DNA of 64,000 bases from a virus: IMG/VR virus record IMGVR_UViG_3300031992_000005, positions 160,001-224,000 of that record. One strand, 5' to 3'. The notes under the pieces are model-generated. The model worked only from the letters and a program-made list of their open reading frames with translations. It ran no database searches and was not told the origin of the DNA. The position numbers and the translations under genes are program-made. Positions within the stretch are counted from its first letter, which is position 1. Each line of letters opens with the position of its first letter. Below are positions 20,386 through 53,285 of the stretch, piece by piece.

Positions 20386-20458
20386 CGCGGGATGGAGCAG
20401 TTGGTAGCTCGCCAGCCCCATAAGCTGGAGGTCGGGGGTTCGAATCCTTCTCCCGCAA
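20386..20458 (+). tRNA. tRNA-Met (CAT), initiator-like
   Basis: Cloverleaf is CGCGGGA-TG-GAGC/AGTTGGTA/GCTC-G-CCAGC/CCCATAA/GCTGG-AGGTC-GGGGG/TTCGAAT/CCTTC-TCCCGCA-A. It has a C1.A72 mismatch as in bacterial tRNA-fMet. No CCA is encoded. Confidence 0.85.
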
Positions 20459-20537
20459 CTATAATAATTTTTAAGGCCACCCAAATCCTTATAATTGTAC
20501 TAAAATTCAATTTTTTATTAACTTAATTAAAGTGTTT

Positions 20538-51843: not shown

Positions 51844-51920
51844 CTTTTTTGTTTTTTATAAATTAAACCTATATATAAGGCAATAACGACATTGATTAAC
51901 ATTTGGGGAAGAAAAAAAAA

Positions 51921-51994
51921 TAATCCGAGAGGGATTCGAACCCTCGACCCCAACATTAAAAGTGTTGTGCTCTGGCCAACTGAGCTATCGAATT
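51921..51994 (-). tRNA. tRNA-Lys (TTT)
   Basis: Cloverleaf is AATTCGA-TA-GCTC/AGTTGGCCA/GAGC-A-CAACA/CTTTTAA/TGTTG-GGGTC-GAGGG/TTCGAAT/CCCTC-TCGGATT-A. The promoter motif ctcatatataaggtttt is directly upstream. Confidence 0.85.
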
Positions 51995-52085: not shown

Positions 52086-52592
52086 CTAAAACAATCGTTC
52101 GAGAACTTGTTGGAATTGAAGTTCATTACCTGTTTGCCACTTGTCTTGGCAAAGATGTAACTGAACCTCGCCCCACTTGGAGGCAAACGTTATCACTTCC
52201 CCTTCTTTTCTCCCTTCGAATAATTCTATTGGGAGATAGCTTGGGAATCTATAATTATCTCGGAGAGCAAGCCACTCTCCTACTGCTGTGCTTTTTCGTG
52301 GCACAAAGGCATCAATACCCTCTTTTGCCCAATCGGACAATGTGCCAATACCTAAGTTACATGACTCGCAGTGGACCCTAACCAGTCCCTTAGAGTCCTT
52401 GAACTCCTTGATTCCGGAATTATTTGCATAAGCATCTAGAATCTCGGAATAACGATCACTGTTCTTCTCTGAAATAGTATCAGTATCGATGCCAAGAACG
52501 ATCGATACGTTACCTTCCAAAACTTGTTCCATACTTGTCTCCATATTCAAATACACTAAATACGTGTCGTGCGCAACATCTAAATTAAACAT
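52086..52592 (-). CDS. hypothetical protein
   Basis: From the ORF track, with a promoter motif upstream. Confidence 0.55.
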   Translation of the reverse strand: MFNLDVAHDTYLVYLNMETSMEQVLEGNVSIVLGIDTDTISEKNSDRYSEILDAYANNSGIKEFKDSKGLVRVHCESCNLGIGTLSDWAKEGIDAFVPRKSTAVGEWLALRDNYRFPSYLPIELFEGRKEGEVITFASKWGEVQLHLCQDKWQTGNELQFQQVLERLF

Positions 52593-52640
52593 TACTCTAT
52601 ATATAAGGCATTAGTTAACATTTGGGGAAGAAAAAAAAAA

Positions 52641-52761
52641 TAATTCGAGAGGGAATCGAACCCCCGACCTCCCCGATATATTAGCTTTATATACCTGGTG
52701 TTCTACCTCAGAAAACCTAAACATAAGATCTAATCGTAGATTTTCTCTGAACTATCGAATT
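52641..52761 (-). tRNA. aberrant 121-nt tRNA-like gene (canonical acceptor and T-arm, expanded D-loop and anticodon arm, anticodon undetermined)
   Basis: AATTCGA-TA-GTTC-[45-nt loop with hairpin AGAAAATCTA...TAGGTTTTCT]-GAAC-A-[28-nt arm CCAGGTATAT/AAAGCTA/ATATATCGGG]-AGGTC-GGGGG/TTCGATT/CCCTC-TCGAATT-A. It has the same promoter/terminator cassette as tRNA-Lys. Confidence 0.45.
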
Positions 52762-52806
52762 ATTCTTATATATAAGGCTTTGAAGGGTTATATGGAAGAA
52801 AAAAAA

Positions 52807-52834
52807 GAAAGGGAAACAATTTCTGCTTCCTTTC
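52807..52834 (-). terminator. terminator hairpin family copy 3
   Basis: Reverse complement is GAAAGGAAGCAGAAATTGTTTCCCTTTC plus a U-run. Confidence 0.55.
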
Positions 52835-52856
52835 TTTTTATGTTGTTTTAGAAGGG

Positions 52857-53066
52857 TTATTTCCTTCTGATAATGTACCCCTTCTTTTCGAGGTAGTCAA
52901 CCTCGCTCTCCAGAATGGTATATTCGTCACCCTTATTCGTGGTGAGAGTATAAGAGAAAACGCCTTTTGGGTCTCTTACACATTTGTAAAAATCTTCAGG
53001 ATTTAACATTACCGTTGTTGGCGATACTACTGCTTTTTGATCCCAAATTTTAATTTCAACTAACAT
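52857..53066 (-). CDS. hypothetical protein
   Basis: From the ORF track, with a promoter motif upstream. Confidence 0.5.
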   Translation of the reverse strand: MLVEIKIWDQKAVVSPTTVMLNPEDFYKCVRDPKGVFSYTLTTNKGDEYTILESEVDYLEKKGYIIRRK

Positions 53067-53211
53067 AATTTTCTTAATTTTATTAAATTTAACATCATAT
53101 TAATTATCTCTATATATATAAGGCACTAATATGGTTTTGGGGAAGGAAAAAAAGATCCACCTTCACAGGCAGATCCTTTCATAATTCTCGAAAAATTCAA
53201 CAATACATATG

Positions 53212-53285
53212 TGATCCGGAAGAGATTCGGACTCTTGACCTACAGTTTAGAAGACTGTTGCTCTATCCAGCTGAGCTACCGGACC
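53212..53285 (-). tRNA. tRNA-Arg (TCT)
   Basis: Cloverleaf is GGTCCGG-TA-GCTC/AGCTGGATA/GAGC-A-ACAGT/CTTCTAA/ACTGT-AGGTC-AAGAG/TCCGAAT/CTCTT-CCGGATC-A. A family hairpin terminator lies at 53151-53179. Confidence 0.85.

Follow-up and report, generated by a model that had tools for sequence, protein, structure and literature searches.

A tRNA-Lys-derived tRNA-like RNA gene in a large phage genome, with a D-loop hairpin and a remodelled anticodon arm

A 121-nt gene lying among the tRNA genes of a large phage genome keeps the complete frame of a tRNA, and in every test run it fails as a decoding tRNA. As judged from alignment with its neighbourhood, it is a duplicated tRNA-Lys gene in which the D loop gained a hairpin and the anticodon arm was replaced. 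The explanation that we prefer, and that we hold with about as much confidence as doubt, is that the gene would encode an independently transcribed, non-decoding tRNA mimic derived from a duplicated tRNA-Lys(UUU) cassette; the gene is probably functional, though dispensable. Phage tRNA genes are now viewed as weapons in conflicts over host tRNAs, and we know of no explanation, after about fifty years, for non-decoding tRNA-shaped RNAs such as T4 species 1 RNA. In the present case the parent tRNA-Lys gene lies next door, so that the changes are readable: the elbow gained a hairpin, another arm took the place of the anticodon arm, and the core persisted, with one compensatory change. By analogy, the RNA may be regarded as a Lys-derived instance of the phage tRNA-like small RNAs, a known but unexplained kind, and it suggests that phages use the tRNA frame as a scaffold for non-decoding RNAs.

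Genomic location and transcription unit

The window, that is, the whole stretch of 64,000 nucleotides analysed here (G000:C1:160001-224000), belongs to a 353-kb virus record that has direct terminal repeats and is rated complete. ARAGORN and Rfam identify six ordinary tRNA genes in the window, namely two for Met and one each for Leu-UAA, Leu-UAG, Lys-UUU, and Arg-UCU. Between tRNA-Arg (53211-53285) and tRNA-Lys, the minus strand carries the 121-nt RNA gene, 650 nt from the tRNA-Lys(UUU) cassette and with the 5' end of the RNA at 52761 and the discriminator A at 52641 (Table 1).

Table 1. Coordinates of the tRNA-like gene, its parts, and its flanking signals within the window
Feature	Position	Strand	Remark
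Upstream terminator hairpin and U-run	52799..52838	-	same hairpin family as upstream of tRNA-Lys
Phage promoter box TAACCCTTCAAAGCCTTATATATAAGAAT	52762..52790	-	core CTTATATAT
tRNA-Lys-derived tRNA-like RNA, 121 nt	52641..52761	-	from acceptor stem to discriminator A
D-loop hairpin insert, 37 nt	52710..52746	-	between G15 and the G18G19 segment
Lengthened anticodon-arm analogue, 27 nt	52672..52698	-	unchanged in three of three haplotypes
Canonical T arm GGGGG/TTCGATT/CCCTC	52649..52665	-	one G.U pair
T10 run directly 3' of the discriminator, without encoded CCA	52631..52640	-	probable termination point, like tRNA-Lys
tRNA-Lys(UUU)	51921..51994	-	paralogue; source of frame and cassette

With a preceding terminator, a promoter box of its own, and a 3' U-run, the gene appears to form a separate transcription unit. 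The upstream hairpin, which was picked up through matches to terminator-like leaders, closes the preceding unit and recurs with few changes in all three haplotypes of the element described below. The core of the promoter box begins 15 nt upstream of the mature 5' end and is present in the genome in 75 copies against 33 expected; the same box precedes tRNA-Lys, tRNA-Arg, and neighbouring genes, and it is unchanged in each of the three haplotypes. None of the genomic tRNA genes (all six checked) encodes CCA, and the phage possesses a nucleotidyltransferase of the CCA-adding-enzyme type outside the window (G000:C1:122293-122673, minus strand; PF01743, 89.4 bits, 464-aa frame).

A T9-T10 run stands directly 3' of both tRNA-Lys (51911-51920) and the tRNA-like gene (52631-52640), on the minus strand in both cases and without a separate hairpin, as if the acceptor/T-arm helix of each were itself the terminator stem. 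tRNA-Arg, by contrast, has a separate terminator hairpin downstream (53150-53210, minus strand).

The arrangement of these signals bears on the idea that the element is a cis-acting, tRNA-like punctuation mark that attracts RNase P or RNase Z and terminates transcription between neighbouring genes. This idea draws on the acceptor/T-arm half and U-run that the element has in common with tRNA-Lys and on weak matches to miniature tRNA-like structures elsewhere in the genome. However, the promoter 15 nt upstream and the terminator hairpin before it point to a separate unit rather than a part of an mRNA, and punctuation would need neither a full D arm nor a conserved 37-nt hairpin nor an invariant 27-nt arm. 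We therefore consider punctuation unlikely.

Structure of the 121-nt RNA

Structure was assigned by a segment-by-segment parse from 52761 to 52641, which confirmed the 121-nt tRNA-like gene that an earlier note on this DNA had placed at 52641-52761, on the minus strand. The acceptor stem (AATTCGA/TCGAATT) comprises seven Watson-Crick pairs and ends in discriminator A73; T8 and A9 lead into a 4-bp D stem (GTTC/GAAC), and A26 separates this stem from the anticodon-arm analogue. Parse and alignment together bear out the description of the acceptor stem, D stem, and T arm as canonical and near to those of tRNA-Lys, and the half of the molecule formed by the 7-bp acceptor stem, the discriminator, and the 5-bp T stem with its T-psi-C loop is that of a canonical tRNA.

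The D loop totals 45 nt and consists of AG, a 37-nt insert, and GAGGTA. The insert, noticed earlier as about 37 extra nucleotides, is a hairpin with a 10-bp stem (AGAAAATCTA/TAGGTTTTCT, one U.G pair; -6.1 to -6.9 kcal/mol) and a 17-nt loop (CGATTAGATCTTATGTT), and it occupies the stretch that normally holds the variable residues 16-17. When the hairpin is left out, the loop reads AGGAGGTA, a normal 8-nt loop with G18G19 placed correctly. Measured against a canonical D arm, which has a stem of 3-4 bp and a loop of about 7-11 nt with A14, G18G19, and A21, the stem and these nucleotides are present and the loop, at 45 nt, is too long.

The anticodon-arm analogue has the sequence CCAGGTATAT / AAAGCTA / ATATATCGGG, in which a stem of 10 positions includes one A.G and one G.U, and it is 5 bp longer than an anticodon arm. 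Its 7-nt loop AAAGCUA (52682-52688) has A33 and U37 and thus lacks both U33 and a purine at position 37, so that the arm departs from the canonical pattern of a 5-bp stem and a 7-nt loop with U33 and purine 37. The 10-bp stem with one A.G and the loop without U33 that the note had reported are both present, whereas the arm measures 27 nt and not 28 nt. The extra G counted there belongs to the variable region, which is present where it had been placed but reads GAGGTC (6 nt) instead of AGGTC.

All core tertiary nucleotides of a tRNA are kept, including T8, A14, G15 with C48, G18G19 with T55 and C56, A21, T54-A58, and G53-C61. The extended cloverleaf has an energy of -28.7 kcal/mol, against -29.7 kcal/mol for the minimum free energy fold. 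Relative to shuffled sequences the folding energy is unremarkable (z = -1.16), and values near those of shuffles are common among tRNAs. A scan of the 353-kb genome for a T arm with a 7-bp closing stem and an interior of up to 450 nt revealed no second credible oversized tRNA-shaped element, and the sequences of the D insert and of the arm have no further copy in the genome, which indicates that the inserted parts are neither a repeat nor a mobile hairpin element.

Other features of the insert and of the loop were considered in passing. A switch of the D insert through an inner hairpin (AUCUA-CGAU-UAGAU) was dropped, as the inner hairpin reaches -1.1 kcal/mol against -6.1 kcal/mol for the full stem. 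A reading frame of 37 codons that runs from an AUG in the D-insert loop through the U-run is spurious by inspection. Apart from the locus of the element itself, the phage genome offers the 17-nt loop no antisense target better than those of shuffled loops. The loop AAAGCUA contains AAA/AAG, which is complementary to the anticodon loop of tRNA-Lys and lies outside the central register of the loop. By our estimate about a quarter of AT-rich 7-nt loops would show this complementarity by chance, and it is mentioned only as an idea.

Comparison with tRNAs, introns, and other RNA classes

Standard tRNA detection does not recognise the gene. ARAGORN in default mode makes no call, and the Rfam tRNA model (RF00005) yields no match at its gathering score (29 bits) and none at E<=10 in a separate run; the best Rfam tRNA signal is a partial one of 14.9 bits at 52649-52692. 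With introns allowed, a check that the earlier note had proposed, ARAGORN returns only a forced and structurally implausible tRNA-Ile(AAU) with a 48-nt intron at position 30/31, a model that drops both 10-bp helices and the GTTC/GAAC stem, is left with a 3-bp D stem without G18G19, and needs A34. When the D insert is removed in silico, ARAGORN in default mode calls the frame a tRNA and names no anticodon. Excision of blocks of 8-12 nt from the arm leads to 80 different tRNA calls with Ile, Tyr, Leu, Asn, Ser, stop, and undefined anticodons, because the arm is a UA repeat, and no excision gives a unique anticodon with a canonical loop.

Known intron types fit the inserts no better. Group I introns are about 200 nt or longer, have a catalytic core, and reside in the anticodon loop; the tRNA-like gene shows no group I signal (RF00028), and its inserts of 37 nt and about 10 nt are far too small. 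No bulge-helix-bulge motif is found at the insert borders, and no bulges flank either insert. The complete 353-kb phage genome lacks a tRNA-splicing endonuclease (PF01974) and RtcB (PF01139) in searches with positive controls, while a search with PF09511 (T4 Rnl1) gave no match in the phage genome or in its control. Removal of a recognised intron type to leave a standard tRNA, the outcome that had been named beforehand as refuting the tRNA-like reading, was thus not obtained.

These results weigh on the proposal, among the options of the earlier note, that the gene is a tRNA with two small non-canonical introns, in other words a precursor of a decoding tRNA whose two inserts are removed by protein enzymes, as with archaeal non-canonical tRNA introns or the "enigmatic introns" of Lak phages. 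The intron-mode call of tRNA-Ile(AAU), the return of a canonical 8-nt D loop upon removal of the insert, and the publication of oversized phage tRNA genes with unexplained inserts (PMC6784885) all lend it some credit. On the other hand, the only ARAGORN solution sacrifices well-formed helices and the D stem, the anticodon obtained from the (UA)n arm varies with the cut and is neither unique nor canonical, and the sizes of the inserts, the borders, and the gene content of the complete genome are all unfavourable. We regard a spliced precursor as very unlikely; if the RNA were spliced after all, it would represent protein-driven tRNA splicing in a bacterial system.

Other tRNA-like RNA classes were compared as well. 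tmRNA combines a tRNA-Ala-like domain with a tag reading frame and pseudoknots; ARAGORN finds no tmRNA here, the only match to RF00023 is an 18-nt T-arm match at 13.6 bits, and G3:U70 is lacking. In YrlA and other bacterial Y RNAs, the ends form a Ro-binding stem and the tRNA-like domain is internal, whereas the ends of the present RNA form the acceptor stem itself, and Rfam gives no match to this class.

An actual intron-like insert was encountered in a close relative of the phage. In L007:1-330 (Logan contig SRR16020863_727153), an insert of about 250 nt interrupts the anticodon loop of tRNA-Arg(UCU), by our reading between positions 34 and 35, and matches the group I model at 30.3 bits (E = 5.9e-6), under the gathering score. 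This gene is the orthologue of window positions 53211-53285, and the copies in G000 and L010 are uninterrupted.

Derivation from tRNA-Lys

Alignment with the tRNA-Lys cassette extends over the upstream terminator hairpin and promoter box of the tRNA-like gene, its first 15 nt and last 32 nt, and its U-run, in agreement with the claim of the earlier note that promoter and upstream hairpin were duplicated from it. A covariance model built from the 121-nt RNA (R1) scores tRNA-Lys at 44 bits and reads both added parts as deletions. The differences within the frame are few: C11U and G24A form a compensatory change in the D stem, A50G turns an A-U into a G.U pair, G69A turns a U.G into a U-A pair, and one further change each is found in the T loop and the variable loop. 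Every one of these differences preserves pairing. The tRNA-Lys variant of one relative (L023) is still closer to the tRNA-like RNA, with an identical T loop TTCGATT and with GGTAGAGCAC against GGTAGAACAC. Since frame and cassette align with tRNA-Lys and the new parts have no other copy, the gene is best read as a tRNA-Lys duplicate; on the same comparison, its tRNA-like pattern is not a product of chance and is homologous to tRNA-Lys across the whole frame.

A separate resemblance concerns the first tRNA-Met(CAU) gene of the window (20386-20459, plus strand), which shares GGAGGTCGGGGGTTCGA, the sequence of the variable loop and 5' strand of the T arm, with the tRNA-like gene. This tRNA-Met starts with C and ends in ...GCAA, with position 1 unpaired against A72, a trait of bacterial initiator tRNAs.

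Distribution and conservation in related phages

Relatives of the locus were gathered through the downstream protein and its distant relatives and come from at least five independent assemblies of different projects. The comparison of orthologous cassettes that had been proposed as a check covers three haplotypes in three gene contexts. In haplotype 1 (G000, L003, and L004), the order is ORF69, element, ORF168, and tRNA-Lys; in haplotype 2 (L005 and L006), ORF67 and ORF84 precede the element, which is followed by ORF165 and tRNA-Lys; and in haplotype 3 (L023), the element lies between ORF173 and ORF161, with a tRNA-Lys variant behind them. Only 4 of the 121 positions vary among the three haplotypes. 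Position 7 is A or G, changing an A-U to a G.U pair; position 117 is A or G, changing a U-A to a U.G pair; position 17 is G or U, the U of L023 breaking the second pair of the D-insert stem; and position 35, in the D-insert loop, is C or U. No variation affects the long arm with its loop, the D stem, or the T arm. No covariation is seen among the three haplotypes, in that no pair has changed on both sides, and covariation consequently speaks neither for nor against the fold.

The RNA stands out from its surroundings as an island of conservation. Between G000 and L005, it is 98.3% identical, compared with 87.6% for the 89 nt upstream, 75.0% for the 48 nt downstream, and 80.5% for the next gene, and the proteins flanking the element are 63% and 79% identical. 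The excess is significant (Fisher p = 2.5e-5), with 0 changes in 81 interior nucleotides (p about 1e-4 or less). The true tRNA-Lys gene displays the same island pattern in this comparison, with 100% identity against 71-75%. A part of the high identity of the RNA could reflect a recent spread of the promoter-RNA module, with recombination at the promoter and terminator repeats, rather than purifying selection over a long time.

The element is absent from the close relatives L010 and L007, in which tRNA-Arg is followed by one gene of the ORF168 family and then tRNA-Lys; L010 has 94% nucleotide identity across the flanking kilobases. This absence indicates that the element is dispensable. Scans for related loci with neighbouring proteins mostly returned nothing, except that the polymerase led to two sister fragments, whose polymerases are 72% and 52% identical and neither of which has a copy of the element, and homologue searches with the small upstream ORFs recovered only the queries themselves. 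BLASTN of positions 52400-53000 against 50,697 phage records gave no match. Exact and degenerate patterns of the T arm and acceptor stem matched nothing in IMG/VR and a single contig in the JGI metagenomes, namely L010, which has the tRNA-Lys and lacks the element. From this distribution, the element is, as far as the gathered genomes tell, an accessory cassette of one narrow lineage, situated in a hot spot of gene turnover between tRNA-Arg and tRNA-Lys.

A pattern for D-loop inserts of 20-50 nt (TAGYYCAG..GGTAGARCA..GGTTCGA), which covers one flavour of D arm, had three matches in IMG/VR. Two of these are chance matches beside normal tRNA-Met genes, and the third is a different thing on an unrelated contig (L016:4556-4658, IMGVR_UViG_3300031965_000128). 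It is a tRNA gene with a normal D arm and an enlarged anticodon region, which ARAGORN calls tRNA-Arg(CCU) only with a 17-nt intron and which model R1 scores at 28.9 bits.

The conservation data bear on the possibility that the gene is a dead tRNA-Lys duplicate, destroyed by two insertions and persisting only as a passenger of a promoter-terminator module moved between phage genomes by recombination. The absence of the element from L007 and L010, its three different gene contexts with repeated promoter and terminator sequences at their borders, and its position in an interval of rapid gene turnover would all be expected of such a remnant, as would the lack of covariation, the stem-breaking change G17U, and the lack of a usable anticodon. 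Yet the RNA differs at only 2-3 of 121 nt where the immediate flanks differ by 12-25%, the remodelled anticodon arm has not changed at all in the three haplotypes, and the promoter is intact and invariant. Moreover, all frame differences from tRNA-Lys keep pairing, one of them by compensation, and both additions are clean helices at positions that the fold tolerates, which would not be expected from random decay. The earlier suggestion of a pseudogene kept in an intact cassette was thus right about the cassette, but a plain pseudogene is weakened by 98% identity in the RNA against 75-88% in its flanks and by the pairing-preserving changes. We regard a dead duplicate as possible but doubtful.

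Comparison with known tRNA-shaped RNAs

Engineered tRNA scaffolds, mascRNA, and the t-elements of plant mitochondria employ the tRNA frame for folding, processing, and stability, with the anticodon arm carrying other sequence. They are artificial or parts of longer eukaryotic or organellar transcripts, whereas the present RNA has a stand-alone phage gene and a D-loop hairpin.

T4 species 1 RNA (rnaC) and species 2 RNA (rnaD) are small stable RNAs whose genes close the T4 tRNA cluster. As annotated, rnaC folds with its 5' and 3' ends paired in a closing stem, which encloses two long hairpins and a canonical T arm (CCGGG/UUCGAAU/CCCGG). Like rnaC, the tRNA-like RNA is phage-encoded, located among tRNA genes, and non-decoding, and it combines a closing stem and a canonical T arm with long replacement hairpins. 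Beyond the T arm, however, there is no homology (model R1 scores rnaC at 7.7 bits, E = 0.19), and the relation is for this reason one of analogy and not of membership. rnaC also lacks the canonical D stem and core, while the tRNA-like RNA keeps a complete tRNA core and is recognisable as a recent tRNA-Lys derivative; the phage group and the host differ, and the tRNA-like gene stands alone in a cassette with a promoter of its own instead of belonging to a tRNA operon. In architecture, T4 species 1 RNA may nevertheless be considered the closest published analogue. Expression of RNAC and RNAD is late, and neither has been assigned a function to date (PMC9697503).

Oversized tRNA genes with "enigmatic introns" have also been described in the Lak megaphages of Prevotella (Devoto et al. 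2019, PMC6784885). The inserts in these gut and rumen phages match none of the intron classes and are nearly the same in different cohorts (PMC6784885), and the tRNA genes are oversized as the tRNA-like gene is. In Lak phages, however, the anticodon and tRNA type are assigned after removal of one insert, whereas the tRNA-like gene has an insert in the D loop in addition to a second one, and neither leads to an assignment.

A third group consists of phage tRNAs with roles in counter-defence. The tRNA-Lys of T5 counters PARIS, a defence system that cleaves tRNA-Lys and in which AriB targets the anticodon stem-loop for recognition (PMC11464382), and escape from anticodon nucleases has been described for phage tRNAs (PMC10264068). 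The tRNA-like gene resembles counter-defence phage tRNA-Lys(UUU) in that it derives from such a tRNA, which lies a short distance away, and in being an accessory, shuffled module, as counter-defence genes often are. It differs in that counter-defence tRNAs decode and replace the cleaved host tRNA, which the tRNA-like RNA, by its loop, could not do.

Proposed maturation and function

Under the preferred reading of a non-decoding tRNA mimic, the primary transcript would be trimmed at its 5' end by host RNase P, although the hairpin beside the elbow might hinder docking of this enzyme. CCA would then be added by the CCA-adding enzyme of the phage, as no phage tRNA gene encodes it. The RNA is predicted to fold into an L shape with two protruding helices. 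The hairpin would project from the D loop at the normally exposed and variable residues 16-17, and with the long arm the anticodon limb would be extended by about half a helical turn. Decoding would be impossible, because the loop is no anticodon loop and does not lie at the right distance from the 3' end. LysRS reads the UUU anticodon, and AlaRS recognises G3:U70. Charging by LysRS is improbable because the UUU anticodon is gone, and the G3:U70 pair for AlaRS is absent from the tRNA-like RNA.

The least certain step is what the RNA does. Most likely, it would offer its tRNA-Lys-like body to a factor that binds tRNAs and so act as a mimic, a decoy, or a stable scaffold in the conflict of phage and host over tRNAs, a suggestion that we make with little confidence. 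Identification of a partner could uncover a new layer of conflict between phage and host. The earlier note had offered a tRNA-derived regulatory RNA or decoy as one option; a tRNA-derived non-decoding RNA is what fits best, whereas the decoy part we only infer.

In a more specific form, the RNA might act as a counter-defence decoy. A host factor directed at tRNA-Lys, such as a nuclease, modification enzyme, or sensor, would bind the CCA-tailed, uncharged tRNA-Lys body through its acceptor/T/D core and be titrated by it; the lengthened arm and the rewritten loop would prevent cleavage or use, while the neighbouring phage tRNA-Lys(UUU) decodes. What makes a decoy or scaffold role in a conflict over tRNA-Lys attractive is the action of phage tRNA-Lys against the PARIS nuclease, together with the evasion of anticodon nucleases by phage tRNAs. 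By the same analogy, however, the idea is weakened, as the anticodon stem-loop recognised by AriB is exactly the part that the tRNA-like RNA has lost. On balance we think a counter-defence decoy unlikely; if true, it would be the first natural tRNA decoy of such a kind shown in a phage.

Neighbouring genes and other tRNA-like matches

Short, weak matches to the tRNA model were recorded at G000:C1:30105-30162 (minus strand, 58 nt, 15.4 bits) and G001:C1:75673-75725 (plus strand, 53 nt, 12.8 bits).

A small ORF of 67-69 aa lies upstream of the element in haplotypes 1 and 2 (window 52857-53066, minus strand, and L005:119-322), and the two versions are 63% identical. It is absent from L007 and L010, two contigs devoid of the element. 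L023 does have the element, and there tblastn finds no such ORF on a contig that comprises about 880 nt upstream of the element, mostly ORF173. The link between this ORF and the element is loose.

The gene downstream of the element belongs to the hypervariable ORF168 family (window 52086-52592, minus strand; relatives in L005, L007, L008, L010, and L023). Identity within the family is 35-83% between phages whose flanks are 91-99% identical, and its distant relatives form 13 clusters. Searches of this family returned no Pfam or PHROG family, no useful Atlas match, and no confident fold. In L020 and L021, distant relatives of ORF168 adjoin a tRNA-Leu(UAG) gene.
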